Source of the DNA: Candidatus Omnitrophota bacterium
Lineage (GTDB): Bacteria; Omnitrophota; Gorgyraeia; Gygaellales; Profunditerraquicolaceae
DNA length: 64,000 bases
Assembly (NCBI GenBank): GCA_043809145.1
Contig: JAZDED010000034.1
Span: forward strand, 6,423-70,422
Direction: 5' to 3'
In this document: positions 3,042 through 57,747 of the stretch, one piece after another
Numbering within the stretch: position 1 is the stretch's first letter
Layout: each line of letters opens with the position of its first letter
Notes under the pieces: model-generated
What the model saw: only the letters and a program-made list of their open reading frames with translations
Told to the model about the DNA's origin: nothing
Database searches by the model: none
Made by a program: the position numbers and the translations under genes

Positions 3042-3075
3042 TACCCCTTACCCCTTATCAGTTAACACTTAACTC

Positions 3076-15749: not shown

Positions 15750-16160
15750 TTATATTTGGTGGGCCAACCAGCGCGTCTTATCGTTATGCTGCAGCTGTTT
15801 GGCTGACAATAATTTGGGGCTAAAAAACGACATGCTGGCCGTCATAGAGAATCCAATCATAACTAAAGATCCTCTTTTGCGCCTTAAATTCATCAAAAAC
15901 TTCTGTTCCGGCTCCCCAACAACTACCTGCCGCGCGTACTTAAGCGCCTCTTCAAGCAAATGGCTGGCATGCACTCCTTGGATAATGACTTTCTCTTTGG
16001 GAAACTTAGCGGCTATATTATATCCTCATTGTAAATTTCAACCTCATGCCCCTGATTACGCAGTATAGTCCCCAAATACAAAGGGCCCAAAAGGGGCATC
16101 TGTAATCTACTATAAATATTGGCCACCGAAGACGTGGGCTCAATCAGAACTACCTTCATG
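15750..16160 (-). pseudogene. Degraded B12-binding-domain (radical-SAM N-terminal type) gene remnant with a frameshift, an internal deletion and truncation.
   Basis: Minus frame A gives MKVVLIEPTSSVANIYSRLQMPLLGPLYLGTILRNQGHEVEIYNEDII* (16160 to 16013). Frame B gives ...IAAKFPKEKVIIQGVHASHLLEEALKYARQVVVGEPEQKFLMNL... (16025 to 15750). Together they resemble a cobalamin-binding domain but lack the downstream radical-SAM core. The frames switch in a TATATTATAT run. Confidence 0.45.
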
Positions 16161-16168
16161 TCTTGAAA

Positions 16169-16375
16169 TTAATTAGAAATCAGGCGGATATTTACTGCCC
16201 GCGGGCCTTTGGGGGATGTTTCAACTTCAAACTCTACTTCCTGGCCTTCTTTCAAACCATCAAAACCTGTCTCCAGCAGACTGGACTGGTGGAAAAACAA
16301 TTCTCTGCCGTCACTGTCGCTGATAAAACCAAAACCTCTGTCTCTGACTACCTTCTTTATCTTTCCTTTATGCAT
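16169..16375 (-). CDS. cspA: Cold-shock protein (CspA family).
   Basis: KGKIKKVVRDRGFGFISDSDGRELFFHQSSL..., RNP motifs, 68 aa. Confidence 0.9.
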   Translation of the reverse strand: MHKGKIKKVVRDRGFGFISDSDGRELFFHQSSLLETGFDGLKEGQEVEFEVETSPKGPRAVNIRLISN

Positions 16376-16519
16376 GAGCTTAATCTCCTTGTTAGATTAT
16401 TAAATCCGGCCATTCAATAAACCGGACTTTGGTGAAATAAAACTGCTTGCGTTATATAATCTTGTAGTGCTATTCTTTAGCATCTGCCTCCTTTGTTTGA
16501 GATTTTGCCAAATAAAGGT

Positions 16520-16562
16520 AAAAACAAAAAAACCGGAAGGCTAGTTATCGTCTGCCTTCCGG
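16520..16562 (-). terminator. Intrinsic terminator downstream of the carA/carB-N operon.
   Basis: Stem CCGGAAGGC/GCCTTCCGG followed on the minus strand by TTTTTTTGTTTTT. Confidence 0.6.
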
Positions 16563-16643
16563 CCCTAAGATTTCTAATCCTTTATTTACTGCCTGATAAT
16601 AGTTATAGCTTATTTAACCGGGTTGTCAAGTTATATATTCAAA

Positions 16644-30767: not shown

Positions 30768-31514
30768 CTAAATATAACAAATCTGCGGCAATCTTCTCTT
30801 ATGCTCAGACCTCTTAACCATTGCTTTGACTTTTTTCACTTTATATAAAGGAAGAATCTGCCTTACCTTTTTCTCCAAAGCCATAAGGATATCATCTAAC
30901 TCCGGATAAGTTATCCCCATCTCACCTTCATCAGTCTGGTCCGGCCATAGCCCGGCAGTAGGAGCTTTTGACATAATCGGTTCAGGAACATTCAAGGCCC
31001 AGGCTAATTGCCTGACCTGGCTCTTTAAAAGACTTCCTATAGGCAAGATATCCACGCCTGCGTCCCCATATTTAGTAGAATAACCCACCATAATCTCGGA
31101 TTTATTTCCTGTGCCGCAAACCAGGTAATTCAGGTTATTGGCAAAATAATACAGAGTCATCATTCTTAAACGTGGTTTCAGATTAGCCTGGCTTAAGCGG
31201 TTTCCTTTCGGAAAAAGGCCCATTAAAGTATCATAGGCCTTAGATAAATCTATGGTTTTAGTCTTTATTCCGAACCTTTTGGCAGTTAATTTAGCATCGA
31301 TCATATCCTGCTTCTGGCTGTGGCATGGTAAGATTAAAGCCAAAACCTTATTCTTTCCCACTGCCTCTTTAGCCAAAGCTAGAATCACAGCAGAATCAAT
31401 GCCGCCAGAAAGGCCTAAAATAATGCCTTTGGCGCCGCTTAATCTAACCTGCTTCTTAATCCAATTTACAATCTTTTTCTTCATGTAACACCCATCAGGC
31501 AACGCTGTTGCCAT
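30768..31514 (-). CDS. nadE: NH3-dependent NAD+ synthetase.
   Basis: PP-loop GLSGGIDSAV. The true start may be the internal Met at 31484 (MKKKIVNWIKK). Confidence 0.8.
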   Translation of the reverse strand: MATALPDGCYMKKKIVNWIKKQVRLSGAKGIILGLSGGIDSAVILALAKEAVGKNKVLALILPCHSQKQDMIDAKLTAKRFGIKTKTIDLSKAYDTLMGLFPKGNRLSQANLKPRLRMMTLYYFANNLNYLVCGTGNKSEIMVGYSTKYGDAGVDILPIGSLLKSQVRQLAWALNVPEPIMSKAPTAGLWPDQTDEGEMGITYPELDDILMALEKKVRQILPLYKVKKVKAMVKRSEHKRRLPQICYI

Positions 31515-31714
31515 TTAGTGACATCCACCAAGCCGGTGTTTCTCTAACTTAAGACTCAGATGGCGAAGGTGAAGAATAGTATATACTACGATTAGTTTAT
31601 AAATTATATACCACTAAATAGATAGGGTCAAGGAGATATTGAGAGGTCCAAAGCTGCACTCAAATCCAGCCCAAGCCCCCGCTTATAACCTTTAAATCGC
31701 TCTAGAAGACAAGG

Positions 31715-31924
31715 TTAAAAACTAGAAACAAGTCCTAGTTTTAGCAAGACTTTCTTTAGAGCATCCAAATCACTTTTAATCAATTCAATATTGGCCATTT
31801 TGACGTTGGGCATTAATGTTGGATTTTGCTCGCAAAGACGATTCTCATTTTCTAATGCTTTAATGCGATAACGCAATACCTTTCTGGATAACTCTTGTGT
31901 GCTCTTTTTAGTCTTCTTTTTCAT
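31715..31924 (-). CDS. Small basic hypothetical protein (69 aa); may not be real.
   Basis: ORF only. Confidence 0.2.
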   Translation of the reverse strand: MKKKTKKSTQELSRKVLRYRIKALENENRLCEQNPTLMPNVKMANIELIKSDLDALKKVLLKLGLVSSF

Positions 31925-32207
31925 TTAAGCCTGGGCAATCTTATGTAGGACCTCGTAGATAAAGGCCTGATAATTTATCCCCATCTTGGGCGCTTCCTCC
32001 TTTCTACTTTCAATAGACGCAGAAAGGAACAGTATCTAATGGAAATATTTGGTGATTTTGGGATTTGGCGCGTCGCTCAAAACACGCCTCGCCAAGGGCA
32101 TCTATTAGATTAGGTTTGAAATTAAAATTTGTTCGGCAGGATATCAGTAGGAGAAAAAATAGAAACGTCCCCTATTTTCCTATATATAGGTCACGGTTAA
32201 TTGGAAT

Positions 32208-32236
32208 TTGACAACTATGATTTTGTAATGTATACT
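32208..32236 (+). promoter_or_regulatory. Near-consensus sigma70 promoter TTGACA-17-TATACT for cassette 1.
   Basis: Read directly. Followed by the GGAGGG Shine-Dalgarno and the ATG at 32259. About 125 nt here are roughly 90% identical to 33342-33465. Confidence 0.55.
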
Positions 32237-32258
32237 TATGTGAATAGTGGAGGGATAT

Positions 32259-32600
32259 ATGGACTGGAAAGAAAATAAGGTTATAGCTATTGGGGCAGGG
32301 GCAGTATTGGTGCTATGTATCATTATGATTGTTATTATCTTACAGCCTAAGAAAACATTGGTAATGCTTATGTCAGATTCAAACCAAGAAATTTTTACTG
32401 GGAAAGTTCCCAATGGCGCTAAGTTTCCTTTGCTTAATCCTAAAACTAAAATGATGGATTTGTATCCTGCTTCAAAGGTAAAATGCGAAAAATGCGGTTG
32501 GGAGGGATACGTGATTACTTTCAAAAAACCGGGCGAACCAGTTGACCCCAGATGTCCTAATTGTAGAGCTCAAACAATATACCTTAGATCTATTAAGTAA
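32259..32600 (+). CDS. Small membrane-anchored zinc-ribbon protein, copy 1 (N-terminal TM, C-terminal CxxC...CPxC).
   Basis: MDWKENKVIAIGAGAVLVLCIIMIVIIL... then ...KCEKCGWEGY...RCPNCRAQ. Paralog of 33437-33835. Confidence 0.6.
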   Translation: MDWKENKVIAIGAGAVLVLCIIMIVIILQPKKTLVMLMSDSNQEIFTGKVPNGAKFPLLNPKTKMMDLYPASKVKCEKCGWEGYVITFKKPGEPVDPRCPNCRAQTIYLRSIK

Positions 32601-32636
32601 TAATTATCTTATGGGGCTTTAAGTAGAGAGGGCCTT

Positions 32637-33104
32637 ATGCTAAGAGATAAAAAAGTCAATACAGGCTTTACGCTGGTTGAAATTATGGTTGTAGTAGCAA
32701 TAATTGGTATTCTTACTGCTACCATAACACCTCAGGTGAGCGGTCTTGTGGATAAAGCTCGTAAGGCCAAAGCCCAGGCAGATGTAAACTCTATTACTGT
32801 CGGAATATTGGCATATGTAGACGATAATACCGGAACGTATCCCGGAGGCAATATCCGTATTGCCCAGGATGGGCAGTGGCTTAATACATATCTGATGGCA
32901 ACTGGAGCAGCAAAAAGGTATTTGCAGAAGAGAATTGAAAATGACCCCTGGAATTTAGCTTACCGTTTTTTTAGCTGCAGCAATTATGCCACTGGCCATT
33001 CTTTTGTTATGAGCCGCGGACAGGATAAAAGCTGTGGAGGTGGTTCTCCTTACCGCTGGGGTAATGCAGCTGTGGGGGATGATGTTGTTGTCTGGATAAG
33101 ATAA
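32637..33104 (+). CDS. Type IV pilin-like / GspG-like (pseudo)pilin, copy 1.
   Basis: Class III signal peptide with prepilin cleavage/methylation motif ...NTG|FTLVEIMVVVAIIGILTA. GspG-like region AKAQADVNSITVGILAYVDDNTGTYPG. C-terminal GDDVVVW. Confidence 0.8.
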   Translation: MLRDKKVNTGFTLVEIMVVVAIIGILTATITPQVSGLVDKARKAKAQADVNSITVGILAYVDDNTGTYPGGNIRIAQDGQWLNTYLMATGAAKRYLQKRIENDPWNLAYRFFSCSNYATGHSFVMSRGQDKSCGGGSPYRWGNAAVGDDVVVWIR

Positions 33105-33144
33105 ATTTAGAAAACATTTTTTCTAGATTTTATTACATACCAAA

Positions 33145-33180
33145 AGGCTGAAGACAAAATTATTCAGCCTATTTAATTTA
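33145..33180 (+). terminator. Weak intrinsic terminator after pilin copy 1.
   Basis: AGGCTGAA...TTCAGCCT stem followed by ATTTAATTTA. Confidence 0.35.
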
Positions 33181-33385
33181 TATGGTAAAATATAATAAAG
33201 CGATATGACAAATTTCCAGAAAAATAGTTTTATTATTCTAGCCATACTGCTATTAGCGGCAATTAATTCTTATTTTTATACCAGCCGCAGCCATATCTTT
33301 AAGGAAGCTGTTATAGCCCGGGCCCCTTCAGTTGTTAAAGCAGAAACGTCCCCTCTTCCATATATAAATCCCGGTTAATCGAAAT

Positions 33386-33414
33386 TTGACAACTATGATT
33401 ATGTAATGTATACT
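33386..33414 (+). promoter_or_regulatory. Near-consensus sigma70 promoter TTGACA-17-TATACT for cassette 2.
   Basis: Identical boxes and spacing to cassette 1. Confidence 0.55.
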
Positions 33415-33436
33415 TATGTTAATAGTGGAGGGATAT

Positions 33437-33835
33437 ATGGATTGGAAAGAAAATAAGGTTATAGGTCTAATCGCAGGTGTAATCTTAATATTTTCTATTA
33501 TATTGGTCATTATTTTGTTGCAGCCGAAAAAAATAAGAATGGCGTTTATGGCTGAGGGCGCAGATGAAGTTTTCGAGATGAATGTCCCTATAGGCACTCA
33601 AGGCCCAGTTGTTAATCCGAAGACAGGGGCCAGGGTTTTATATCCGGCTACAAAATTAAAATGCCAAAAGTGCGGCTGGGAAGGGTGGTTAATTAACTGG
33701 AGGTCAAGCTCAAAACCTCTCTCGCCTAAAGAGCTGGCAAAATTGTCTGACGAAAAGAAGTCGGCTAAAATAAAGTCCGGCTTACCTACTGTTTGCCCTA
33801 GATGCGGCTCTCCGCAATTAAGCCAGATGAAATAA
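33437..33835 (+). CDS. Small membrane-anchored zinc-ribbon protein, copy 2.
   Basis: MDWKENKVIGLIAGVILIFSIILVIILL... then ...KCQKCGWEGW...VCPRCGSPQ. The first 9 codons are almost nucleotide-identical to copy 1; the remainder is about 45% identical at the amino-acid level. Confidence 0.6.
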   Translation: MDWKENKVIGLIAGVILIFSIILVIILLQPKKIRMAFMAEGADEVFEMNVPIGTQGPVVNPKTGARVLYPATKLKCQKCGWEGWLINWRSSSKPLSPKELAKLSDEKKSAKIKSGLPTVCPRCGSPQLSQMK

Positions 33836-33865
33836 ATCTATTATAACTTCTAGAAGGTGGTTATA

Positions 33866-34351
33866 ATGAAAGACAAAGGCTTTACTCTTGTGGAAGTGAT
33901 GGTTGTGGTGGCGATTATCGGTATTTTGGCTACTACGGTTTTGCCCAACGCAACTAACTTAATCAATAAAGCAAAAATAGCAAAGGCGAATTCAGAGCTG
34001 CAATCCTTAGCAGTTGCTATCCTGGCCTATTACGATGACCGCAATAGCTGGCCAGGCGATATTAGTGGCAACGGCTGGAATGATAGCTGTTATATCGGAC
34101 GGACAGTGCGCGGCGGTTGCGGCTTTGGGAATGTTTGTCTTATGTCTACTACGTATGGCGCTACCAGGTATCTAAATAGAGATATTACTCAATCTCCCTG
34201 GGGTGGCGGCTGCGGGACATACCTCTGGAGATCAAGGCCTGATGGCTGGTTTGCTTTTGTCGCTTGTCTTGGCCCAGATAAGACGCGCCAAACCTGCTTT
34301 ACTACTGTAAGGGCACCAGCCGGTGATGACCTCGTAGTTTATTTAGAATGA
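33866..34351 (+). CDS. Type IV pilin-like / GspG-like (pseudo)pilin, copy 2.
   Basis: MKDKG|FTLVEVMVVVAIIGILATT. AKANSELQSLAVAILAYYDD; C-terminal GDDLVVY; several Cys in the C-terminal half. Confidence 0.8.
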   Translation: MKDKGFTLVEVMVVVAIIGILATTVLPNATNLINKAKIAKANSELQSLAVAILAYYDDRNSWPGDISGNGWNDSCYIGRTVRGGCGFGNVCLMSTTYGATRYLNRDITQSPWGGGCGTYLWRSRPDGWFAFVACLGPDKTRQTCFTTVRAPAGDDLVVYLE

Positions 34352-34357
34352 TTTTAA

Positions 34358-34945
34358 ATGCCTTTGTATTTTTACAAAAATAAATTTTTTTATATAACCG
34401 CAGCAATCTTTCTTATTGTTAGCCTTAATTTATATCGATTATTAAGGAATGAAGGAAAAGTAAATCTCTTTCCGGGCTGGGACAAAACAATAGAAACATC
34501 TGGATTTTTCTTCAAGGCGCCTAATAATTGGCCTCTGGCCGTTATCCGGGGAAATAAAGAAAAAGGAGAAGTTGTTTTTTCTCAGCAATTTCATTTCCAA
34601 AGATACAACTGGTACCTGGTTTTTTCTTGGGATAAGCAAGATTTTAATTGGAAAGAGTTACTACCGCCTTTAAAAAAAGATCCTGGAGTCAAGAGCGAAC
34701 CCGAATATAATTTTGGAGAGATTTATCAGAAAGACATTTTATTCCAAAACAAAACCAGGGGATTTAAGAATATTGTTCTTTGGATTAAACGGTCTTGCGG
34801 TATAGTCGAGCGTAACTGGCTTTTTTTGTTCGAATCTAATAATCTGCCGGGGGAGAAATTTTTTTTTAAAGCCCTATACCTTAGCGATAAAAGTCAGGAA
34901 GAGACATTCCGTCGCATTCTAGCTTCCATAAAATTTAAACGATAA
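34358..34945 (+). CDS. Hypothetical protein with an N-terminal TM anchor.
   Basis: Lies 6 nt after the pilin-2 stop; 195 aa; no recognisable family. Confidence 0.4.
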   Translation: MPLYFYKNKFFYITAAIFLIVSLNLYRLLRNEGKVNLFPGWDKTIETSGFFFKAPNNWPLAVIRGNKEKGEVVFSQQFHFQRYNWYLVFSWDKQDFNWKELLPPLKKDPGVKSEPEYNFGEIYQKDILFQNKTRGFKNIVLWIKRSCGIVERNWLFLFESNNLPGEKFFFKALYLSDKSQEETFRRILASIKFKR

Positions 34946-34948
34946 AAT

Positions 34949-35785
34949 ATGGATATTGTAGTTGAAACCCGGGGATTAGGTAAAAATTTTACAAAAGTTA
35001 TTGCTTTGGCGGATTTAAATTTAACCTTAAAGCAAGGAGAGATCTTCGGGCTCCTGGGGCCAAATGGCTCAGGAAAAACCACTTTGATTAAGATCCTTCT
35101 GGGGGTCCTTTTTCCCACAAAAGGCAGCGTCCGGGTTCTAGGGCAGGACCCCAGGGATATCTCAATAAAATATCGGATCGGATTTTTGCCTGAGACTCCT
35201 CAATATTACCCTTTCTTAAATCCGGTTGAGGTTTTAGATTTCTTTGCCCGGCTTTTTAATATCCCCAAAAAATTAAGGAAAATAAGAATAGAAGAATTAA
35301 TTAATCTGGTCAGCTTATCGGATTATAGAAAGAGGAGATTGGGTGCTTTCTCTAAGGGGATGCTCCAGAGGATGGGCTTAGCCGTAAGCCTGATTAATGA
35401 CCCGGATTTTTTATTATTGGATGAGCCGACTGTAGGTTTAGATCCGCTAGGGGCATTCCAGGTCCGGGATTTATTATTAAAATTAAAGGCCGAAGGAAAA
35501 ACTATTTTGCTTTGCAGCCACTTGCTTTCGGAGGTTGAAAGCGCCTGCGACAAAATCGCTGTTCTTTATAAGGGAGTACTGGTAAAAGAAGGCCGGCTCT
35601 CTGAACTTTTGAAGAAAGATGATGAAATCCAGATTAATATTAAAACTAAAGAACCAGCTATCAGGGATAAAATCTTAGCCTTGATAAAAAACATTGAAGA
35701 AACCGAGGTGGATATCGGTTATCCTAATCAATCCCTGGATGAGTTATTCCGCAGTATAATTAAGGATTCAGAGAATGTTAAATAA
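34949..35785 (+). CDS. ABC transporter ATP-binding protein (ABC-2 / export type).
   Basis: Walker A GPNGSGKTT, signature FSKGMLQR, Walker B LLLDEPTVGLD. Confidence 0.85.
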   Translation: MDIVVETRGLGKNFTKVIALADLNLTLKQGEIFGLLGPNGSGKTTLIKILLGVLFPTKGSVRVLGQDPRDISIKYRIGFLPETPQYYPFLNPVEVLDFFARLFNIPKKLRKIRIEELINLVSLSDYRKRRLGAFSKGMLQRMGLAVSLINDPDFLLLDEPTVGLDPLGAFQVRDLLLKLKAEGKTILLCSHLLSEVESACDKIAVLYKGVLVKEGRLSELLKKDDEIQINIKTKEPAIRDKILALIKNIEETEVDIGYPNQSLDELFRSIIKDSENVK

Positions 35786-36545
35786 GGTTTGGGCAATAAC
35801 CATAAATACTTTTAAAGAGGCAATCCGCCGTAAGATCCTCTATGTGTTTTTATTTTCTGCCATAGGCATTATTTTCGTTGGCCGCTTCTTTAACTTTTTA
35901 TCTCCTTCAAACGAAACAAAAATCGCTATTGATATGGGCCTGGCCGGTATTCTTTTTTTTGGGGCCCTTATCGCAATATTTTCCTGCGGGGAGCTGATTC
36001 CCCGGGAGATAGAAAAGCAGACTATCATTACTCTTTTAAGCAAACCAATAAAAAGGATTGAATTTTTGGCAGGTAAATTTCTGGGCGGTTTTCTTTTGGT
36101 ATTTGTGAATTTTCTTTTAATGTCGATTGTATTCCTGGTGATAATTTATTTCAAGGAAAAAACAGTCTCAATAGACCTGGTTAAAGCGCTTTTGCTTACC
36201 TTCTGGGAGCTAATAGTTTTATCTTCGATTGCCGTATGCCTATCTATCTTAAGCTCAACAGTAGCTTTTAACGTAACCGTTACCTTTTCTATTTATATCC
36301 TTGGCCATCTTACGGATTATTTTGTTCATATCGCTAAGCAAGCAGAATATTCGGTTATTTCCGTGTTGCTTATGGTAATTTATACCATAGTCCCTAATTT
36401 TAACCACTTTAATCTCCGGGATAAAGTTGTAGAAGGTTTCTTCATCTCCAATGCCCAAGTATTTGAGGTTTTTCTGTATGGTTTGGTTTATATCGCGGTT
36501 ATGTTAGGCTTATCTTTCCTTTTCTTTCAAGATAAAGAATTCTGA
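35775..36545 (+). CDS. ABC-2 family transporter permease.
   Basis: Six predicted TM helices; overlaps the ATPase gene by 11 nt. Confidence 0.65.
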   Translation: MLNKVWAITINTFKEAIRRKILYVFLFSAIGIIFVGRFFNFLSPSNETKIAIDMGLAGILFFGALIAIFSCGELIPREIEKQTIITLLSKPIKRIEFLAGKFLGGFLLVFVNFLLMSIVFLVIIYFKEKTVSIDLVKALLLTFWELIVLSSIAVCLSILSSTVAFNVTVTFSIYILGHLTDYFVHIAKQAEYSVISVLLMVIYTIVPNFNHFNLRDKVVEGFFISNAQVFEVFLYGLVYIAVMLGLSFLFFQDKEF

Positions 36546-37246
36546 TGCCTTCAAGAATCATTCGTAAATCATTTTTGACCTTAGCCGTCGTTTTACTTTA
36601 TTTTTCCTTATTTTTTATCTCCCGGAAACTTGTTGCATATAGGGGTTTACCGGAACGTTTACTGATTAAGCCGGGAGAATTTGCGGTATTAGTTGCGTTA
36701 GGCGGATTGAAAGGGGTAGCTGCCGACCTGTTATACCTGAAAGCAGATCAGCTATGGCAGGAAAAGAAATGGAAAGAAATGATCCCCTATTACCGGGCAA
36801 TAACCGTGCTGCAGCCGTATTATATTGATTACTGGTCAATAGCCGGTTTTCACATCGCCTGGAACTTGTCTTTTGCCGCTAAAACTCCGGCAGAAAAAGA
36901 GTCCTATATAAAACAGGGGGTAGATTTTTTAAAAGAAGGGCTTAATTATAACCCTGATGCCTATAAGTTATATTTTGACCTGGCTTTTACCTATGACCAT
37001 AAACTTAAAGATTATGGCCAGGCGGTTGAATGGTATAGGAAGGCGATAAACTTTCCCCATCTGGTATATGTGGAGCGTTTAATCGCCCACTGCCTGCGTA
37101 AGAATGGGGATTTACCAGCTGCTTATCAGGAATGGCAAAAATTAAAAGACCTTTATCTTGATGATGAATACCATCAGGATATTGTTAAGCGTAATCTTAA
37201 ATCCGTAGAAGAGGAAATGATAAAGAGTGGCCAGAAGCCCGAATAA
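36545..37246 (+). CDS. Membrane-anchored TPR-like repeat protein.
   Basis: N-terminal TM, then helical repeats (YYRAITVLQPYY..., AVEWYRKAINF...). Confidence 0.45.
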   Translation: MPSRIIRKSFLTLAVVLLYFSLFFISRKLVAYRGLPERLLIKPGEFAVLVALGGLKGVAADLLYLKADQLWQEKKWKEMIPYYRAITVLQPYYIDYWSIAGFHIAWNLSFAAKTPAEKESYIKQGVDFLKEGLNYNPDAYKLYFDLAFTYDHKLKDYGQAVEWYRKAINFPHLVYVERLIAHCLRKNGDLPAAYQEWQKLKDLYLDDEYHQDIVKRNLKSVEEEMIKSGQKPE

Positions 37247-37748
37247 AAAAATATATTTAATAGTTTTATTATTATCATTAACAGTGGCTATAGTTTTCTA
37301 CCCGGGAGGTAAATTGGCTAAAAAAGTAGATTTGGGCGAGGGAATAACCGTAAGTGTCCCGGGGAATTTCCCAAAGCACACCTTAAAGCAGGAAAGTGAT
37401 TTAAGGATTACCTCATTTAATATTCAGCCTCACGAAAAATCACTGAGGTTTATTAACTTTCTTGAGTTTATCGTTTCGGCAGATAAGCTGGATTGCCTAA
37501 AAAGGCTGCCTAAAGAAGGCTATGAAATCGGTAACACCAACGAAGAAAAACTTTTAATAAATAGCCAGAGCGTTATTTTAAAAACCATAGAACTGAAAAT
37601 TACCCATCCCTGCGGCTCAAAGGAAAAAGGTTTAATTTACGCCTTGGAATATTTTTGCCAACCTAAAGACAAATATATTTATCTTCTTACCTTTACTATG
37701 ACTAAAAATGGATTTTTGGATATCGCTAAAACTCTGAAATGTTATTAG
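37227..37748 (+). CDS. Hypothetical exported/anchored protein.
   Basis: N-terminal hydrophobic segment; no family recognised. Confidence 0.35.
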   Translation: MARSPNKKIYLIVLLLSLTVAIVFYPGGKLAKKVDLGEGITVSVPGNFPKHTLKQESDLRITSFNIQPHEKSLRFINFLEFIVSADKLDCLKRLPKEGYEIGNTNEEKLLINSQSVILKTIELKITHPCGSKEKGLIYALEYFCQPKDKYIYLLTFTMTKNGFLDIAKTLKCY

Positions 37749-38314
37749 AGAAGATCAGCACTGCATTGATTTTGGGTCTATCCGCCGAGAGGATTCTACT
37801 TTGCCCTTTTATGGCGATGGGCCTTTCGCTTTCTGACCGTGGGGGAGGCTTAAAATTTATTTTAGGCAGGTTAGCGGGAATCAGCCTTTTAGGCTTGTTT
37901 ATATCCATAATTGGCGTTCCTTTTAATATCCCTCCCTATATATTAGACGGAGTCTTTGGTTTGTTTCTTTTGGGGCTGGGGGTAAACGCGTTATTAAAAT
38001 CAAAACACCAACTTAAGCAGAAGAAATTTTCTAACGCCGGATTTAGTTTGGGTTTATTCAGAGGTATGCTTAATCCCGGAAGAAAGCTTGTTTATCTTTT
38101 ACCGCTTTTATGGGGGATAAGAGTTGTTGACGGCCTGGCGGTTTCGCTGGCCTACGGTTTAAGTTCTTCGGTATATCTTCTTCTGGGATTCTTTTCTGCT
38201 GAGCTCTTAAATAGGGTTTCGGCTTATCAAAAACAGATAAAATTAGCCGGGGCAATAATATTATTATTTTTAGGGGGGTTTTATATTTTTAAGTTCTTTC
38301 AAGGAAGATTATAA
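37739..38314 (+). CDS. Polytopic membrane protein (about 6 TM), unknown family; candidate metal/cofactor transporter.
   Basis: Hydrophobic throughout, with CPFMAMG in the first TM helix. Confidence 0.4.
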   Translation: MLLEKISTALILGLSAERILLCPFMAMGLSLSDRGGGLKFILGRLAGISLLGLFISIIGVPFNIPPYILDGVFGLFLLGLGVNALLKSKHQLKQKKFSNAGFSLGLFRGMLNPGRKLVYLLPLLWGIRVVDGLAVSLAYGLSSSVYLLLGFFSAELLNRVSAYQKQIKLAGAIILLFLGGFYIFKFFQGRL

Positions 38315-38315
38315 G

Positions 38316-39155
38316 ATGAAACTGCGAATATCCAAGCATCCATGTTTTGACGAAAAGGCCCATTTGAAATTTGCCCGCATCCATCTACCGGTTGCCAAAT
38401 TTTGCAATATCGGCTGCAAATATTGCATCCGGCTGTTAAATAAAACCGAAAACCGCCCCGGCATAGCTTCCCGGATACTTTCACCAAGACAGGCCTTGAA
38501 TAAAGTAAGAAGGATTATTAAATCTTATCCTTTGACTGTAGTCGGGATCGCCGGGCCCGGGGATCCCTTGGCCAATGATGAGACCTTTCAGGTGCTTGAA
38601 TTGATCAAAAAAGAATTTCCTAAGCTTATGAAATGTTTGAGCACTAATGGGTTACTGCTTTTGGATTATACGGATTTATTAAAGAAGTTAAATCTGGCAA
38701 CTCTTACGGTTACGGTTAATGCTGTTTTGCCGAAAACCGCCACCAGGATTTATGATTTTGTCGTCTGGGGCGGTAAAAAGTATTGCGGTATCCAGGGAGC
38801 AGAGATTTTATTAGCCAGGCAGCAGGCAGGAATTAAAGAAGCAGTAAAGCAGGGCATTGCTGTTAAAATAAATACAGTGCTTATCCCTGAGGTCAATAAA
38901 AAAGAAATACCCGCGATAGCTAAAATTTATGGTTCTTTAGGCGCCAAGATGATGAATATTATTCCTCTTATCCCGATTTATAGGATGGCTTCCTGCAAGG
39001 CGCCGGATTGTAATGAATTAAAGGATATAAGAAGCAAGGCTGAGAAATATATTTCGCAATTTAGGCTCTGCAAACAGTGCCGGGCCGATGCCGTAGGGAT
39101 ACCGGGGCTGCAGAGAAAAGATTTCTCCAGCCCTTCCGAATACTTCCACTTTTGA
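38316..39155 (+). CDS. NifB-like radical-SAM protein (minimal NifB core, no NifX-like extension).
   Basis: HPCFDEKAHLKFARIHLPVAKFCNIGCKYCIR...GIAGPGDPLAND...KCLSTNG...CKQCRADAVGIPG. This aligns motif for motif with the NifB radical-SAM domain (HPC, H, Cx3Cx2C, GIAGPGDPLAN, CLSTNG, CxxCRADAxG) as I recall it. Confidence 0.7.
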   Translation: MKLRISKHPCFDEKAHLKFARIHLPVAKFCNIGCKYCIRLLNKTENRPGIASRILSPRQALNKVRRIIKSYPLTVVGIAGPGDPLANDETFQVLELIKKEFPKLMKCLSTNGLLLLDYTDLLKKLNLATLTVTVNAVLPKTATRIYDFVVWGGKKYCGIQGAEILLARQQAGIKEAVKQGIAVKINTVLIPEVNKKEIPAIAKIYGSLGAKMMNIIPLIPIYRMASCKAPDCNELKDIRSKAEKYISQFRLCKQCRADAVGIPGLQRKDFSSPSEYFHF

Positions 39156-39248
39156 GAAAGTGAAACTAGGGCAAAGCGGAGATTTTATTAGAGATATCTA
39201 AATATATATGAAGATAGCGGTAGCTTCTAGGAATTAAGGGGACGGTTC

Positions 39249-39758
39249 TTAAACCCTGCGGAAACCTATCGGCTTTTTGACAGGTAGCGGCGCAGGTTCC
39301 AGAAGTTGTTTTATGGCCTGGAAAACAATGGCAAACTGCCGGTCGTATTTTTTCTCCATCGCCTCAATTTTTCGCCTGAGGCCTGTATTGGTTAGCAACA
39401 TCCGGCGCAACTGAGTAAACGCGCGCATTATTTGAATATTGACCGCAATTGCCCGATTGCTATTTAAAACCCCAGAAAGCATAGCCACACCTTGTTCAGT
39501 AAATGCTAATGGCAAGTGAGGTGAAAATTTCAGGAATTTAAGGTGGTCGCAATTTGCGACCACCTCTTCTTTCTCTTTGGCAGTCAATTGAAACATAAAG
39601 TCTTCTGGAAATCTCTTTTTATTTCTCTTTACCTGCTCATTTAATCTTTTTGTCTGTACCCCATACAACAAAGCCAAATCACTATCTAGCATAACCTTCT
39701 TACCCCTGATAATAAAGATCTTTGTGGCGATTACTTCTATAGGAACTAATTCAGACAT
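39249..39758 (-). CDS. ORF6N-domain protein (phage/antirepressor-associated DNA-binding domain).
   Basis: IRGKKVMLDSDLALLYGVQTKRLNEQVKRNKKRFPEDFMFQLT matches the ORF6N consensus. Confidence 0.65.
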   Translation of the reverse strand: MSELVPIEVIATKIFIIRGKKVMLDSDLALLYGVQTKRLNEQVKRNKKRFPEDFMFQLTAKEKEEVVANCDHLKFLKFSPHLPLAFTEQGVAMLSGVLNSNRAIAVNIQIMRAFTQLRRMLLTNTGLRRKIEAMEKKYDRQFAIVFQAIKQLLEPAPLPVKKPIGFRRV

Positions 39759-39826
39759 ATTATTCTCCTTTCTGTACCTATTATATTAGACGCAAAAAGG
39801 AGTAAAATCTAACATAGCTTTTCCAA

Positions 39827-39866
39827 ATAAAAAAGAACGGTTCTGCCTTTACTTTCAGAACCGTCC
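39827..39866 (-). terminator. Hairpin plus T-run on the minus strand (greA terminator or motif-family hairpin).
   Basis: ACGGTTCTG...CAGAACCGT 9-bp stem preceded on the plus strand by AAAAAAG. The stem is built from the AGAACCGTCCC-type motif. Confidence 0.4.
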
Positions 39867-40001
39867 CTATATTTACTATCCTCTGGACAGGGCTCGGCAA
39901 AAACAATAAATAGAAACGTCCCCTAGCTTGCTTGACAGGACCCGCTAAATACTAAGCCTTTGGGACAGACCCCAAATACAGGGGTCAGTCCCGCAGGCTA
40001 G

Positions 40002-52547: not shown

Positions 52548-53804
52548 ATGTCAAATTTTCGAATAATACTTAAAAACAGGGATTTTCTGCTCTTATGGAG
52601 CGGGCAGATCATTTCGCAAATTGGCGACCGGCTTAACCAGATGGCTTTGATTGCCTTTGTTTACCTGCGCGCTCCCGGGTCATCCATTGAAATAGCTAAA
52701 ATCCTCTCTTTTACCATTATGCCGGTATTCATCATCGGCCCTATCGCCGGCGCCTATGTGGACCGCTGGAATAGACGCCAGACAATGTTTACCTGCGATT
52801 TCCTGCGCGCTATACTGATCCTGTTTATACCTCTATTTCTATTCCACGCTAAAAGCCTAACCTGGGTTATATACCTGATTATATTTATAGTCTTTTCCAT
52901 CAGCCGTTTTTTTGTCCCGGCAAAACTGGCCATCATACCTGACCTGGTAAAAAAAGAAGAACTCCTCATGGCAAATTCCCTTATCAACACCACCGGCATG
53001 ATTGCTGCCATACTGGGATTCGGCATAAGCGGGATAATTGTAGAAAAGATCGGCGCTCAAGGAGGATTTTACCTGGATACCTTTAGCTTCCTGGTCTCAG
53101 GAACGCTAATATTTATGATCGCTAAAAGAACGGGCCTCTCCCTTAATCTTAAAAAAGTAGGTAAGGAATTCGTGGGCTCTATACGTAAATCTCTGTTCCA
53201 GGAAATTAAAGAGGGTATCCTCTATTTTATTAAAAACAAAGAGATCCGGCTTACCACGGGCATCATCTTCGTGCTCTGGTCAGCCCTGGGAGCGGTTTAC
53301 GTGGTAGCAATTGTCTTTATACAAGAATCCCTGCACTCAGCTACCAAAGATTTGGGCCTCTTAGCCATGTTCCTGGGCTTAGGGCTACTCTGCGGCTCTT
53401 TATTTTATGGCCGCTTCGGACAGCGTTTATCACAGTATAAAATAATATTTGTATCTTTAATATTAAGCGGTTTAATGCTCATTGTTTTTGCCCTGGGGAT
53501 CGAGCGCTACCCATCCCTATCGCTGGCGGCAACATTGTCTTTTGCCCTGGGTTTATTCATTGCTCCGATTATGATTGCCTCCAACACGATCATCCATAAT
53601 GTAAGCCATAACCATATGATGGGCAAGATCTTCAGCTCCCTGGAAATCGTAATGCATCTGGGATTCGTAATCTTTATGTTTGTAACCAGCTTCTGGGCAG
53701 AGAAGGTTAATCCTACTATTATCCTGGTTACAGCCGGCTTCATCGTAACTAACCTCGGCGTTATCAACCTTATTACCGACCGCAGAAAGAAATGGTCAAT
53801 TTAA
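52548..53804 (+). CDS. MFS transporter. Start moved to the ATG at 52548, downstream of the tRNA.
   Basis: 12 predicted TM helices; MFS-like motif around GDRLNQ. Confidence 0.7.
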   Translation: MSNFRIILKNRDFLLLWSGQIISQIGDRLNQMALIAFVYLRAPGSSIEIAKILSFTIMPVFIIGPIAGAYVDRWNRRQTMFTCDFLRAILILFIPLFLFHAKSLTWVIYLIIFIVFSISRFFVPAKLAIIPDLVKKEELLMANSLINTTGMIAAILGFGISGIIVEKIGAQGGFYLDTFSFLVSGTLIFMIAKRTGLSLNLKKVGKEFVGSIRKSLFQEIKEGILYFIKNKEIRLTTGIIFVLWSALGAVYVVAIVFIQESLHSATKDLGLLAMFLGLGLLCGSLFYGRFGQRLSQYKIIFVSLILSGLMLIVFALGIERYPSLSLAATLSFALGLFIAPIMIASNTIIHNVSHNHMMGKIFSSLEIVMHLGFVIFMFVTSFWAEKVNPTIILVTAGFIVTNLGVINLITDRRKKWSI

Positions 53805-55063
53805 AAGAAAATAAACACCGCACCGAACACAAGCAAATTGAATCAATCCCAGCGCCTAAAAGAGCTTATATATCATTGAATCAACAGCTTAAAAAAAGCT
53901 TTTCACCGCTGGTAAAAGCAGGTGACCAGGTACTTAAGGGGCAGAAGATTGCCAGTATTAAAGAAGGCATATATTCGGCTATTCACTCTCCCATATCGGG
54001 AAAGATCTTTTCTATCCAGGATTCCCCGCATCAGGTATTGGGAAAAGGCAAAGCTATTATTATCGATAATGATTTTCAGGAAAAAAGTGTTGCTACATAC
54101 CTACGCACACAGAAAGAAATCGATAGCCTGGACGCGCAAGAGTTACGCGCAATAATACGCGAAACAGGAATAGTCGGATTAGGCGGAGCAGGTTTTCCCA
54201 GTTATATAAAACTCACCCCCCCAAGACCAATACATACATTGATTATTAACGGCGCGGAATGCGAGCCCTACCTGACCTGCGATTACCGCATTATGTTAGA
54301 AAAGACCGAAGAAATAATCCTGGGCATAGGGCTAATTGCCAGGTGTTTAGGCGCAAAGGATATATATATAGGTATAGAAGATAATAAACCCAAAGCTATA
54401 GAAAAATTCAGGTCCAAGGGGCAAGGATTAAAAGTTAAAGTCTTAAAAAGCTTTTACCCGCAGGGAGGAGAAAAACAGATTATAAAGAATATAACCAATA
54501 ACGAAGTAGAGCGAGGGAAACTTCCTTTTGACTCTGGAGTAGTCGTACAAAACGTTGGGACAGCGCTATCCATTTACGAAGCAGTCTATCTTAATAAACC
54601 GCTTTTTGAGAGGGTAATGACCGTAACCGGGAGTTGCCTGGTTAACCCTAAAAATCTTAAAGTCTGTATCGGTACCCCTATTAAAGAACTGATTGATTTC
54701 TGCGGTCCACTTAAAGAAAATCCGGCAAAGATAGTCATTGGCGGCCCGATGATGGGCATCGCCCAAAACAATGTTATGACCCCGGTTATAAAATCCACTA
54801 CCGGAGTTATCCTCTTCAATAAAAAAGAGGCTCAAACCACGGATGAAGAACCTTGCATCCGCTGCGCAGCCTGCGTAAGGGAATGCCCGGTAGGGCTAAT
54901 GCCCTGCATGATAAATTTAGCTTCAATAAAACAGTTATGGCCGCAAGCTAAAGATTTCGGCGCTCTGGACTGTATTGAATGCGGATTATGCAGTTATGTC
55001 TGCCCGGCTAACCGCAGATTAGTTCAATCAATAAAAATGGCAAAACTAGAGGCAATTGTATGA
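53792..55063 (+). CDS. rnfC: Rnf complex subunit C.
   Basis: NADH-binding-like domain and two 4Fe-4S motifs (CIRCAACVRECP; CIECGLCSYVCP). Confidence 0.85.
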   Translation: MVNLKENKHRTEHKQIESIPAPKRAYISLNQQLKKSFSPLVKAGDQVLKGQKIASIKEGIYSAIHSPISGKIFSIQDSPHQVLGKGKAIIIDNDFQEKSVATYLRTQKEIDSLDAQELRAIIRETGIVGLGGAGFPSYIKLTPPRPIHTLIINGAECEPYLTCDYRIMLEKTEEIILGIGLIARCLGAKDIYIGIEDNKPKAIEKFRSKGQGLKVKVLKSFYPQGGEKQIIKNITNNEVERGKLPFDSGVVVQNVGTALSIYEAVYLNKPLFERVMTVTGSCLVNPKNLKVCIGTPIKELIDFCGPLKENPAKIVIGGPMMGIAQNNVMTPVIKSTTGVILFNKKEAQTTDEEPCIRCAACVRECPVGLMPCMINLASIKQLWPQAKDFGALDCIECGLCSYVCPANRRLVQSIKMAKLEAIV

Positions 55064-55581
55064 AAGACTTGTTTAAATATGGACTCGTATTAGGGGTTAT
55101 ATGCGCGATAGCTACCGGCCTTCTGGCGGGAATGAACGCGCTTACTCAACCCAGAATTATTGCCCAGGCTGCCGAAGAACTAAATAATAGCCTAAAAGAA
55201 ATCCTGCCTGAAGCGGCTAGTTTTGAAGCAGTAACCCGTGAAGAAAAAATTATTTATTACAAGGCCTACGATTCACGAAAGAATATTATTGGCGCAGCTT
55301 TTAAGGCAAGCGCTAAAGGATACTCCAGTACCATTGAAACACTTGTAGGCATGTTAAAAAACGGCCAGATAACCGCGATTAAAGTAATAGACCAGAATGA
55401 AACCCCGGGTTTGGGAAGCCAAATAACAGATAAAGGCTTCTGCGGTCAATTCAGCAATAAAGGTATCTCTGGCCTATCAGATATTCATGCAATAACCGGA
55501 GCAACCATATCTTCCCGGGCGGTAATAGATTCAGTAAAGCAGAAATCACAGGAAATCGGGGAATTAATAAAAAATGAATAA
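55060..55581 (+). CDS. rnfG: Rnf complex subunit G (FMN-binding).
   Basis: Single N-terminal TM, ETPGLG and the covalent-FMN motif TGATISSRAV. Confidence 0.8.
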   Translation: MKDLFKYGLVLGVICAIATGLLAGMNALTQPRIIAQAAEELNNSLKEILPEAASFEAVTREEKIIYYKAYDSRKNIIGAAFKASAKGYSSTIETLVGMLKNGQITAIKVIDQNETPGLGSQITDKGFCGQFSNKGISGLSDIHAITGATISSRAVIDSVKQKSQEIGELIKNE

Positions 55582-56518
55582 GCCGTTAATAGTAAATAGC
55601 TGGCCGCATCTACACACCAAAGAATCCGTAAAACGTATTATGTGGTTGGTAACATTAAGCCTGGTACCAACCGGTTTTATGGGTGTGCGCATCTTCGGCT
55701 GGAATTCGTTATGGGTAATAGCCATTAGCGTATCCGCGGCATTAGCTACTGAGTTAATCTTTCAGCTTCTTACCAGAAGAAAAATAACCCTTGGAGATGG
55801 AAGCGCATTCCTGACCGGACTCTTATTAGCCTACAACCTGCCTCCGGAAATACCCTTCTGGATTCCCCTTGTAGGTTCATTCTTTGCTATTGCTATAGGA
55901 AAACAGGTCTTTGGCGGATTAGGGCAAAATATTTTTAATCCGGCCCTGGTCGGCAGGGCATTTTTGGTTGCTTCCTGGCCAAAATATATGACTAATTTTA
56001 CCCGGCCTTTTAATTATGACGCCGTAACTCAAGCCACTCCCCTGGCCCTGCTTAAAGAAGGAAGCCTAGAGCCTCACTTGTCATATTTGGACCTCTTTCT
56101 CGGCTATCGGGGCGGATGTATAGGAGAAGTTTGTATCTGGGCGCTTTTACTGGGAGCAGCATTTCTGCTTATTAAAGGCTACATCAGCTGGCACACACCT
56201 TTTACTTATATAGGCAGTGTGGCTGTATTCACTTATGCCTTCGGCGGAAAAACCGGATTATTTACCGGCGATTGGATATTCCATCTTTTAACCGGGGGAT
56301 TAATCCTAGGAGCTTTCTTTATGGCTACTGATTATGTAACCAGCCCTCTTACGGCAAAGGGACAGATTATATTCGGTATAGGTTGCGGAATACTAACCTC
56401 CGTAATCCGTATTTGGGGCGGATATCCTGAAGGAGTATCATATTCTATACTTATGATGAATGCTGCCGCTCCTTTTATTGATCGTTATACAAAGAACAGA
56501 ATATACGGATCAAAATAG
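55574..56518 (+). CDS. rnfD: Rnf complex subunit D.
   Basis: NqrB/RnfD polytopic protein; C-terminal LMMNAAAPFIDRYT. Confidence 0.8.
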   Translation: MNKPLIVNSWPHLHTKESVKRIMWLVTLSLVPTGFMGVRIFGWNSLWVIAISVSAALATELIFQLLTRRKITLGDGSAFLTGLLLAYNLPPEIPFWIPLVGSFFAIAIGKQVFGGLGQNIFNPALVGRAFLVASWPKYMTNFTRPFNYDAVTQATPLALLKEGSLEPHLSYLDLFLGYRGGCIGEVCIWALLLGAAFLLIKGYISWHTPFTYIGSVAVFTYAFGGKTGLFTGDWIFHLLTGGLILGAFFMATDYVTSPLTAKGQIIFGIGCGILTSVIRIWGGYPEGVSYSILMMNAAAPFIDRYTKNRIYGSK

Positions 56519-56548
56519 CTATTGGTTTAAAAGCCTGAATAATTAAAT

Positions 56549-57142
56549 ATGAAAAACTTAATAAAAGAGTTCGCAAAAGGGATTATTAAGGAAAACCCCA
56601 CTTTCGTATTAGCGCTGGGGCTTTGCCCAACCCTGGCTGTATCCGTATCGTTAATAAACGGTATCGGTATGGGCATAGCTGCCACTTTTGTACTGCTAGG
56701 TTCCAATATTATTATTGCCTTATTAAAAAATTTTATTCCGGCTAAAGTACGGATACCCTGTTTTATCGTAGTCATTGCCACTTTCGTAACCATAGTTGAA
56801 ATGCTCATGAAAGCCTATAGCCCGGCTTTAAACCGCGCGCTGGGAATCTATGTCCCGCTTATCGTAGTTAATTGCATGGTTCTGGGCAGAGCAGAGGCCT
56901 TTGCTTCCAAGAATTCAATGGTTAAGTCTTTCTTTGACGGTTTAGGTATGGGTATTGGCTTTACTCTGGCCCTGGCCCTTATTTCTGCCGTACGGGAAGT
57001 ACTTGGCGCAGGAAAAATTATGGGATATACATTAATTAAAGGGTTTAATCCGGCATTAATATTCAGCCTTCCCGCAGGAGCACTTTTGGTTATCGGCTTA
57101 CTACTGGGTTTTTTTAACATCTTTAAAGAAAGAAGAAAATGA
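56549..57142 (+). CDS. rnfE: Rnf complex subunit E.
   Basis: NPTFVLALGLCPTLAV N-terminus typical of RnfE/NqrD. Confidence 0.8.
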   Translation: MKNLIKEFAKGIIKENPTFVLALGLCPTLAVSVSLINGIGMGIAATFVLLGSNIIIALLKNFIPAKVRIPCFIVVIATFVTIVEMLMKAYSPALNRALGIYVPLIVVNCMVLGRAEAFASKNSMVKSFFDGLGMGIGFTLALALISAVREVLGAGKIMGYTLIKGFNPALIFSLPAGALLVIGLLLGFFNIFKERRK

Positions 57143-57747
57143 ACTTCTCTTATTTCTTAAGCATTTTTATTCAATCAGTTTTTGTCTATAATGTCGTCCT
57201 CTCGCGCTTTCTGGGGTTATGCCCATTCATTGCCATCTCCAAGGAAACCAAGCCTGCTTTTGCTATGAGCCTGGCTGTTACCTTTGTAATTACCACCTCC
57301 AGTATTATTACCTGGTTTATCTACCGCTTCCTGCTTATTCCTTTTAACCTGACCTATCTACGCACCATCTCTTTTATCTTGGTAATCGCCACATTTGTGC
57401 AACTGGTAGAAATGGTAATTAAAAAAATAAGCCCGCCGATGTACCGCCTGTTCGGAATCTATCTGCCTCTAATCACGGTTAACTGCGCTGTTTTAGGCAT
57501 AGCGGTGCTTAATAGCGATATGTTTTTTGCCAATAATAAAGCAGTTGCCGGAAGTTTCGCTTTTTCTGTTTTTCAAGGGATATGCGCGGGAATTGGTTAT
57601 ACCCTGGCAATGCTGCTTATGTCGGGAATAAGGGAAAGGCTGGAATATTGCAACGTGCCAAAAGCAGTCAGAAATTTACCTCTGGCTTTTATCATTGCTT
57701 CTATTATCAGTTTGAGCTTCACCGGATTTAACGGTTTCAAATTTTAG
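57139..57747 (+). CDS. rnfA: Rnf complex subunit A.
   Basis: NVVLSRFLGLCPFIAISK N-terminus typical of RnfA/NqrE. Confidence 0.8.
   Translation: MNFSYFLSIFIQSVFVYNVVLSRFLGLCPFIAISKETKPAFAMSLAVTFVITTSSIITWFIYRFLLIPFNLTYLRTISFILVIATFVQLVEMVIKKISPPMYRLFGIYLPLITVNCAVLGIAVLNSDMFFANNKAVAGSFAFSVFQGICAGIGYTLAMLLMSGIRERLEYCNVPKAVRNLPLAFIIASIISLSFTGFNGFKF

Follow-up and report, generated by a model that had tools for sequence, protein, structure and literature searches.

NifB was long thought to serve nitrogenase only, and its reach has recently been extended to nitrogenase-like reductases and to the activation of methyl-coenzyme M reductase (PMC12176620, PMC13474568), whose activation complex contains L-cluster-like cofactors (PMC12176620). 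NifB is essential in methanogens, and, according to a July 2026 review, the roles of many NifB homologues and the shuttling of their cofactors are unresolved (PMC13474568). Here, we describe a locus within a 64,000-nt stretch of contig JAZDED010000034.1 from a Candidatus Omnitrophota bacterium (hereafter the window), in which the gene for a NifB-like radical S-adenosylmethionine (SAM) enzyme is the last of a block of plus-strand genes at 33416-39155. It is preceded directly by the gene for a membrane protein of 191 aa (m191) and, before that, by the gene for an exported or anchored protein of 173 aa (u173). Upstream of this trio, the block encodes a zinc-ribbon membrane protein, a pseudopilin, a protein of 195 aa (u195), the ATPase and permease of an ABC-2 transporter, and a membrane-anchored tetratricopeptide repeat (TPR) protein. 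We put forward, as a tentative reading that falls a little short of an even chance, that the block is a composite operon of one Omnitrophota clade, made of three units, in which the trio would act as a trans-membrane Cys relay serving the NifB-type enzyme. To our knowledge, Omnitrophota are not known as methanogens and have rarely been reported as nitrogen fixers.

Among described enzymes, the stand-alone archaeal NifB proteins (Methanothermobacter, Methanothrix; 7bi7, 7jma, 6y1x) resemble the window enzyme in length class, in lacking a NifX domain, in aligning with it without gaps, and in their ligands. The nifB model TIGR01290 matched the window enzyme at 282.6 bits (E 5e-84), below its cut-off of 343.65, over model positions 8-282 of 441; the match spans the radical SAM core only, and, like archaeal NifB, the enzyme lacks the NifX-like C-terminal domain. 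The Radical_SAM Pfam family matched at 63 bits, and the gapless alignment to the NifB structures 7bi7 and 7jma (E 3.6e-80) gave ∼50% identity to structurally solved NifB. Ligands were assigned following PMC6053413 and PMC8179604, and their conservation was counted in 120 relatives. The radical SAM CxxxCxxC motif (C30, C34 and C37, corresponding to C38, C42 and C45 of Methanothermobacter) is conserved in 119 of the 120. The K1 ligands C10, H23 and C107 are present (Cys18, His31 and Cys115 in Methanothermobacter numbering), as are the K2 ligands C252 and C255 (Cys260 and Cys263, in C-x-x-C-R-A-D-A), which all 120 relatives keep, and Glu53 of the flexible loop is kept as E45, with Glu in 115/120. 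Conservation of the kept ligands thus runs from 115 to 120 of the 120 relatives.

The initial annotation had offered, as one speculative reading, a pilus or secretion system with a radical SAM maturase, in which the enzyme would modify a pilin or a small peptide encoded in the cluster. Pilins are indeed adjacent, and the one at the head of the block (pilin 2) is Cys-rich, but the gapless alignment to NifB structures and the retention of both K1 and K2 ligands do not support such a role. SPASM-family matches in Pfam and NCBIfam were weak (E 1e-6 or weaker) and lay over the shared radical SAM core only, and neither database reported an added peptide-maturase (SPASM-type) domain for the enzyme. 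In addition, the trio occurs elsewhere without pilins, relatives occur with NifX-like proteins, and at one related locus (L023) the block stands behind a Cys-poor pilin. We consider a maturase highly improbable, and rejected a peptide or pilin maturase on account of the NifB-specific ligands and the absence of an added peptide-maturase domain.

One residue sets the window enzyme apart from archaeal NifB. Cys52, the gating Cys (Cys63 in Methanosarcina numbering), has been described as “strictly conserved”, and its substitution greatly cuts NifB-co synthesis while SAM is still cleaved (PMC8179604). In the window enzyme this residue is replaced by Thr44, and not one of the 39 closest cluster representatives with an aligned residue has Cys at this position, which is occupied by Val, Thr, Ile, Ala, Ser or Asn instead. 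Over the whole census, the gating position is not Cys in 50 of the 120 relatives, and most archaeal relatives retain it. Its absence throughout the closest representatives marks the clade as a distinct NifB subfamily, one that would provide a natural test of the role of the gating Cys. Apart from this substitution (Val, Thr or Ile across the clade), the window enzyme differs from archaeal NifB in its bacterial Omnitrophota host and in its partners, a membrane protein and an exported Cys protein, and no nif, nitrogenase-like or Mmp/McrC genes were seen near it. MarB, NfaB, IsrB and the NifB of methyl-coenzyme M reductase activation likewise belong to the NifB family outside classical nitrogenase (PMC13474568, PMC12176620). 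These enzymes, however, are encoded beside H/D/K or Mmp clients, whereas the neighbours here are u173 and m191, and no client was seen.

The first of these neighbours, u173, is a protein of the PsbP/DcrB/LpqN-type fold, exported or membrane-anchored. It matched the fold of solved PsbP/Mog1/DcrB/LpqN-type members, and its profile found no sequence relative among solved structures. Three Cys are invariant in the family, Cys129 (in P-C-G), Cys144 and Cys172, which is the penultimate residue; they are specific to the u173 family, which shares 5-12% identity with the DcrB, LpqN and PsbP-fold envelope accessory proteins. The GTG start at 37227 is backed by conserved hydrophobic extensions (L022, L023) and by signal sequences throughout the family. 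Public annotation calls u173 as a protein of 144 aa, and thereby loses the N-terminal membrane anchor (37227-37314).

The second, m191, is predicted to be a divergent DsbD_2-like membrane protein of six helices. The window protein itself reached 15.2 bits against DsbD_2 (PF13386), for which the cut-off is 24.9, and 73 of the 93 family members matched at E <= 0.01 (best 3.6e-10), with 31 bits for the homologue in L012. The m191 model aligned to CcdA over 156 residues and also showed a resemblance to RnfA/NqrE; its profile found no sequence relative among solved structures. The “CPFM” motif remarked on in the initial annotation proved to be part of a near-invariant (at least 90%) Cys22-Pro23-Phe24 in a broken first helix, and a loop R-G-x-L-N-P-G-R-K is conserved as well. 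At the pseudo-symmetric site in the second repeat stands Asn112-Pro113, not Cys. A TauE sulfite exporter label for m191 was discarded because TauE matches occurred in only 4 of the 93 family members, and a CcdA-type two-Cys electron transporter was rejected on the single conserved Cys, Cys22.

In the reading that we tentatively favour, u173, m191 and the NifB-type enzyme would form the third unit of the operon, exported, membrane-embedded and cytoplasmic, respectively, and the path of the relay would lead from the periplasmic Cys of u173 to Cys22 of m191 and on to the cytoplasm. The relay might deliver a thiophilic metal or a sulfur species to the NifB-like enzyme, or otherwise couple the periplasm to it, and the enzyme would in turn fuse Fe-S clusters, the product being NifB-co-like and destined for a client. 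The relay of CcdA or DsbD with ResA or CcmG is likewise built from a Cys protein that is exported, a small polytopic protein in the membrane whose Cys adjoins a Pro where a helix is broken, and a partner on the cytoplasmic side. CcdA, however, uses two conserved Cys where m191 has one, and the trio includes no partner of thioredoxin or HMA fold; its cytoplasmic member is of NifB type. Both ResA-CcdA and the mercury relay MerP-MerT-MerA would be analogous to the trio in layout.

The initial annotation had named conservation of the gene neighbourhood as a check on the block, and when related genomes were compared we found the whole order of nine genes (zinc-ribbon protein, pilin, u195, ABC ATPase, ABC-2 permease, TPR protein, u173, m191 and NifB-like enzyme) in three other Omnitrophota lineages (L001-L003, L022 and L023), making four lineages with the window. 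The same tight spacing is kept in these three, and their NifB-like enzymes are 70%, 71% and 67% identical to that of the window. Such an arrangement goes far beyond what chance would produce. In all three the block is embedded in a complete type IV pilus-like operon: minor pilins, PilC/GspF and PilM follow it in L001, L022 and L023, joined by PilO in L001 and L022, and upstream lie a gene for a PilB/GspE-type ATPase in L002 and L022 and one for a secretin in L022. In the window genome the block is separated from the pilus machinery genes. We scanned ∼36 of the 59 window open reading frames (ORFs) of at least 150 aa, which gave housekeeping functions and an Rnf complex around the block, and found among them neither pilus machinery (PilB/GspE, PilC/GspF, PilM/N/O, secretin) nor nitrogenase-like genes (NifH-type, Oxidored_nitro).

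We suggest that the zinc-ribbon membrane protein and the pseudopilin would be the first unit of the composite operon, and that u195, as an exported accessory protein of PsbP/DcrB fold, the ABC-2 ATPase and permease, and the membrane-anchored TPR protein would be the second, a pilus-operon ABC exporter. The ATPase reached 215 bits against the drrA subfamily and 189 bits against GldA, both below their cut-offs; its gene is adjacent to, and overlaps by 11 nt, that of the permease, whose PF12679 score of 53.8 bits compares with a cut-off of 27.2. The TPR protein has a 67% identical orthologue and a 27% identical paralogue in L001, and the pilus operon there holds a second, paralogous set of pilin, ABC (39%), ABC-2 (25%) and TPR (27%) genes without NifB. 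A metagenome profile search with the TPR alignment re-found only the organism of L002, the ABC-2/TPR unit being poorly sampled outside the clade. The third member of this unit, u195, aligned to the u173 family in hhalign with a probability of 98% (E 1.6e-13), and as judged from these profiles the two are distant paralogues; u195 retains only the Cys of the “CG” hairpin, and occurs in a very small clade only, 6 representative relatives having been found among 1.84 billion proteins. Given this paralogy, the genes ahead of the ABC-2 transporter and of m191 encode related exported proteins. In this clade, relay and ABC-2 exporter would have been recruited into a type IV pilus-like operon together with their respective periplasmic partners, which are paralogous to each other. 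There is precedent for ABC transporter genes inside a type IV pilus cluster in PilGHI of Myxococcus xanthus (PMC6060248), which, compared by gene context alone, is likewise an ABC ATPase and permease pair; unlike PilGHI, the window transporter stands apart from the pilus machinery and is accompanied by a membrane-anchored TPR protein and a PsbP/DcrB-fold protein.

Beyond these lineages the block comes apart. In more distant Omnitrophota, with NifB-like enzymes 55-63% identical to that of the window, only the trio, or the pair of m191 and the NifB-like enzyme, stays together. The trio or the pair stands alone at L004-L011, L013 and L016, at L004-L011 and L013 with overlapping or abutting stop and start codons and with unrelated flanks, and a 5.4-kb contig binned as Altiarchaeota also bears the pair. 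Over 16 distinct loci, the neighbour of m191 was NifB-like in 15 and NifX-like in the sixteenth, and a u173-family gene was present at 13. The longest contigs were equally long for 18 pairs of NifB-like and m191 homologues, and 16 of the 28 u173 homologues could likewise be paired by longest contig with an m191 homologue. A repeat contig search with the m191 alignment gave only 6 loci, and a search of genome contigs with the single NifB-like protein found no relatives. The trio of u173, m191 and NifB-like enzyme is the evolutionarily stable core, and the single system of eight genes that the initial annotation had proposed holds as a tight, conserved and co-directional unit but is divisible, the trio recurring in many Omnitrophota without pilin, ABC-2 transporter or this TPR protein.

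A second Omnitrophota clade, which includes Ca. Undivivens (L005, L008, L011 and L013), carries the trio co-directional with, and downstream of, a secretin gene. Genes for an AAA_22 ATPase and for TPR proteins also lie upstream of the trio in L005 and L011, with a T2SS-C-like gene in L011. An IS200-like Y1_Tnp gene is annotated upstream of the trio in L005 and L011. Directly 3' of the trio lies a giant ORF in L005, L008, L009, L011 and L013; that of L005 (10896-20870) encodes 4426 aa with Kelch and DUF2341 matches. According to a recent preprint, giant genes of Omnitrophota are typically flanked by secretion or pilus genes. The link of the trio to pilus or secretion genes is recurrent, not universal, L004 and L006 having no neighbours of this kind.

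More distant pairs of m191 and u173, with m191 identities of 38-44%, were found outside Omnitrophota. In a metagenome-assembled genome (MAG) of Desulfuromonadaceae (L017), the cluster comprises NifB, an FGE-sulfatase, u173, m191, a NifX-like protein, TonB and a TonB-dependent receptor; the NifB is canonical and retains the gating Cys, and the NifX-like protein is separate. Two copies of a Cys-rich membrane protein (CSGNCDxDGC, CCC) flank the NifB/u173/m191/NifX-like cluster at 2460-3098 and 8306-8896 of L017. Two metagenome contigs of no assigned taxonomy (L018, L019) carry, in order, a receptor, NifB (333.7 bits with the nifB model), an FGE-sulfatase, u173, m191, YtkA and a further receptor. 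In a Fibrobacterota MAG (L012), m191 occurs without u173 and is joined to a NifX-like gene by an overlapping stop and start. Across phyla, m191 and u173 are thus robustly partnered with the NifB/NifX family, and the distant settings of the partnership look like uptake. Because these relatives lie among TonB-dependent receptors, TonB and a YtkA-domain protein, import would most likely be the direction of the relay.

The opposite direction, in which the NifB-like enzyme would make a complex Fe-S(-C) cluster or reducing power, and m191 (here also the ABC-2 exporter) would pass the product outward to u173 and u195 and then to a pilus- or secretin-associated structure, is unlikely in our judgement. 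The export of u173 with its three invariant Cys, the likeness of m191 to the membrane electron-transfer proteins CcdA and RnfA/NqrE, the presence in the same unit of an ABC-2 exporter with a paralogous periplasmic partner, and the repeated position of the trio beside secretin or pilus genes in two Omnitrophota clades would all fit outward assembly or export. However, m191 has one conserved Cys as against two in CcdA, with Asn-Pro at the pseudo-symmetric position, passage of an eight-iron cluster through a six-helix protein is unlikely, the surroundings of the distant relatives, with TonB and TonB-dependent receptors, are those of uptake, and no precedent was found in the literature searched. 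The suggestion in the initial annotation of an envelope-associated module for metallocluster or cofactor assembly and export is compatible with the evidence as far as the envelope module goes.

The distant loci also bear on whether the enzyme simply performs ordinary NifB duty, making NifB-co or L-cluster for a nitrogenase or a nitrogenase-like enzyme whose genes lie at another site in the genome, with u173 and m191 as accessories (in metal or sulfur supply, for example) and the pilin, ABC-2 and TPR genes unrelated in function. Two PF00148 (Oxidored_nitro, D/K-type) genes lie 6 kb from the cluster at 14323-16618 (minus strand) in L018, and at 15558-16211 (minus strand) in L019, where the contig ends within the first, and in these organisms the cluster may be a metal-supply route for a nitrogenase-like enzyme. 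The retention of nearly all ligands and the ∼50% identity to functional archaeal NifB, the occurrence of the trio without pilus or ABC genes, and the NifB homologues of unassigned role that accompany nitrogenase-like clusters (PMC13474568) would also accord with such a duty. On the other side, in five lineages (L001-L007) no NifH-type or Oxidored_nitro (NifD/K-type) Pfam family was found among the called genes within 10 kb on either side, just as none was found among the scanned window ORFs, L008-L013 having been compared only with the window's own proteins or scanned in part; the gating Cys is lost in 39/39 of the closest representatives with an aligned residue; and the full block inside pilus operons of three separate lineages is hard to explain by chance packing. 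We regard ordinary duty as unlikely.

Several points weigh against a relay that serves a NifB-type enzyme in a composite operon. Loss of Cys52 may mean that the product is not NifB-co-like. Gene spacing is the ground on which the block is presumed to be co-transcribed. No pilus genes lie near the trio in L004 and L006, and, Omnitrophota being rich in pilin genes, some of the proximity to pilus genes may have no functional meaning. Nitrogenase genes have been reported from one Omnitrophota MAG (PMC9391474), which would also favour ordinary NifB duty.

In the literature searched, which included the 2026 review of nitrogenase-like systems, neither NifB homologues partnered by a DsbD_2-like membrane protein and an exported Cys protein nor NifB genes in pilus operons were described, and the statement in the initial annotation that no described system combines these genes stands against the same literature. 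What appears to be new is a form of NifB-family cluster biosynthesis whose envelope partners are conserved and in which loss of the gating Cys is diagnostic. The locus defines a coherent NifB subfamily without a supposedly invariant Cys, together with two uncharacterised partner families, m191 and u173, which are candidates for metal or sulfur supply to NifB-type enzymes and for cofactor trafficking at the membrane, and its position within the type IV pilus-like operons of nanobacteria that depend on hosts may hint at redox or metal biology of the envelope. A bolder proposal, which we think rather improbable, is that Omnitrophota use a NifB-derived complex Fe-S (possibly carbide) cluster in an envelope- or pilus-associated process by way of the Cys52-less NifB paralogue, m191 and u173; if true, NifB chemistry would have one more biological role, in addition to those in nitrogenase, nitrogenase-like enzymes and the methyl-coenzyme M reductase activation complex.

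Archaeal relatives of the NifB-like enzyme were found in other settings. One, 57% identical, sits in an Mmp/McrC cluster and illustrates the known role outside nitrogenase. At 1763-8785 of L015 an archaeal NifB, which has the gating Cys, lies amid DUF2102, DUF2112, BcrAD_BadFG, DUF2113, McrC and DUF2099 genes, and this methanogenesis-marker setting agrees with the published link between NifB and methyl-coenzyme M reductase activation. In a Helarchaeota contig (L014, 1391-6954), a NifB-like gene without the gating Cys stands directly after the genes for the small and large subunits of a [NiFe]-hydrogenase and for an HdrA/FlpD-like fusion.

The features of the block and of the cassettes at its 5' side are collected in Table 1. 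The eight ORFs from pilin 2 to the NifB-like gene (33866-39155), which the initial annotation had listed as closely packed and co-directional, were recovered at the same coordinates in the window ORF list, and all junctions were reproduced, with gaps of 6, 3 and 1 nt and overlaps of 11, 1, 20 and 10 nt. Its family labels (pseudopilin, ABC-2 pair, membrane-anchored TPR protein, NifB-like enzyme) were mostly borne out by Pfam and NCBIfam searches. A consensus scan of the block for plus-strand terminators gave nothing convincing, only stems of 5-6 bp, in agreement with the absence of an internal terminator noted there, and no terminator-like structure was seen 3' of the NifB-like gene.

Table 1. 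Coordinates, in the window, of the block and of the zinc-ribbon/pilin cassettes.
Feature	Position	Strand	Basis or remark
Promoter-like site, cassette 1	32208-32236	+	TTGACA-17-TATACT, 11/12 consensus; inside 174-nt repeat
Zinc-ribbon membrane protein copy 1, 117 aa	32247-32600	+	ORF; two CxxC pairs, N-terminal hydrophobic helix
GspG-like pseudopilin copy 1, 155 aa	32637-33104	+	N_methyl (PF07963) 31 bits, T2SSG 31.9 bits, both above cut-off
Terminator-like hairpin followed by U-rich tract, 3' of cassette 1	33145-33170	+	Fold
Promoter-like site, cassette 2	33386-33414	+	11/12 consensus; hexamers and spacer as at 32208
Zinc-ribbon membrane protein copy 2, 139 aa; the unit probably opens with this gene	33416-33835	+	ORF; orthologues
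Pseudopilin copy 2, 161 aa from ATG 33866 (ORF opens at GTG 33857)	33866-34351	+	N_methyl (PF07963) 35.7 bits
u195, 195 aa	34358-34945	+	Membrane-anchored or exported; distant u173 paralogue
ABC transporter ATPase, DrrA/GldA-like	34949-35785	+	ABC_tran (PF00005) 105 bits
ABC-2 type permease	35775-36545	+	ABC2_membrane_2 (PF12679) 53.8 bits
Membrane-anchored TPR protein, 233 aa	36545-37246	+	Weak TPR matches
u173, 173 aa, exported or anchored, PsbP/DcrB-fold	37227-37748	+	Three invariant Cys
m191, 191 aa, membrane protein of ∼six helices	37739-38314	+	Predicted divergent DsbD_2 family member
NifB-like radical SAM enzyme, 279 aa, without NifX domain	38316-39155	+	TIGR01290 282.6 bits

The initial annotation had let the unit begin at pilin 2. 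We place its likely start one gene upstream, at the zinc-ribbon gene, whose orthologues lie directly 5' of the pilin in L001, L022 and L023; the long transcription unit probably begins at the promoter-like site of cassette 2, and its first gene at 33416. Promoter-like matches as a class were at chance level in a consensus scan (27 found, 22.6 ± 4.8 expected). Both promoter-like sites, together with the 5' ends of both zinc-ribbon genes, fall within a 174-nt direct repeat of 80% identity (32182-32355 and 33360-33533). The orthologue of zinc-ribbon copy 1 also precedes a pilin in L001, and since both zinc-ribbon/pilin cassettes have orthologues there the duplication is old. The hairpin that the initial annotation described after cassette 1 is genuine, the fold of 33100-33190 giving -20.9 kcal/mol and z = -4.9.

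Both pilins carry the prepilin cleavage and methylation motif (G-F-T-L-x-E) and a hydrophobic helix, and TIGR02532 matched pilin 2 at 34.4 bits and pilin 1 at 28 bits. The globular part of pilin 2 is Cys-rich, and six Cys are kept in its 66-67% identical orthologues (L001, L022). A metal-binding pilin was rejected, because in L023 the block is retained behind a Cys-poor pilin. Between the cassettes, a possible small ORF of ∼57 aa with a hydrophobic centre was read by eye at ∼33206-33378 (plus strand). In the stretch that separates the zinc-ribbon gene from pilin 2, a small plus-strand hairpin at 33839-33868 (-8.7 kcal/mol, z = -2.9) takes up the Shine-Dalgarno region and start codon of pilin 2 in its pairing, and might throttle translation of the pilin.

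Rfam searches gave no riboswitch or other RNA in 31000-40000, and only tRNAs, again with no riboswitch or other RNA, in six related loci. PADLOC returned only generic ABC and radical SAM matches in the block, on which ground a known defence system was rejected. An ORF6N-domain gene at 39249-39758 (minus strand), convergent to the NifB-like gene, gives a 203-bit match to PDC-S05, a candidate defence family of PADLOC. Farther downstream, a complete Rnf-type operon lies at 53792-58588 (plus strand), in the order RnfC, FMN_bind (RnfG), RnfD, two Rnf-Nqr membrane subunits (RnfE, RnfA) and RnfB-like ferredoxin domains, with an MFS transporter gene directly upstream.

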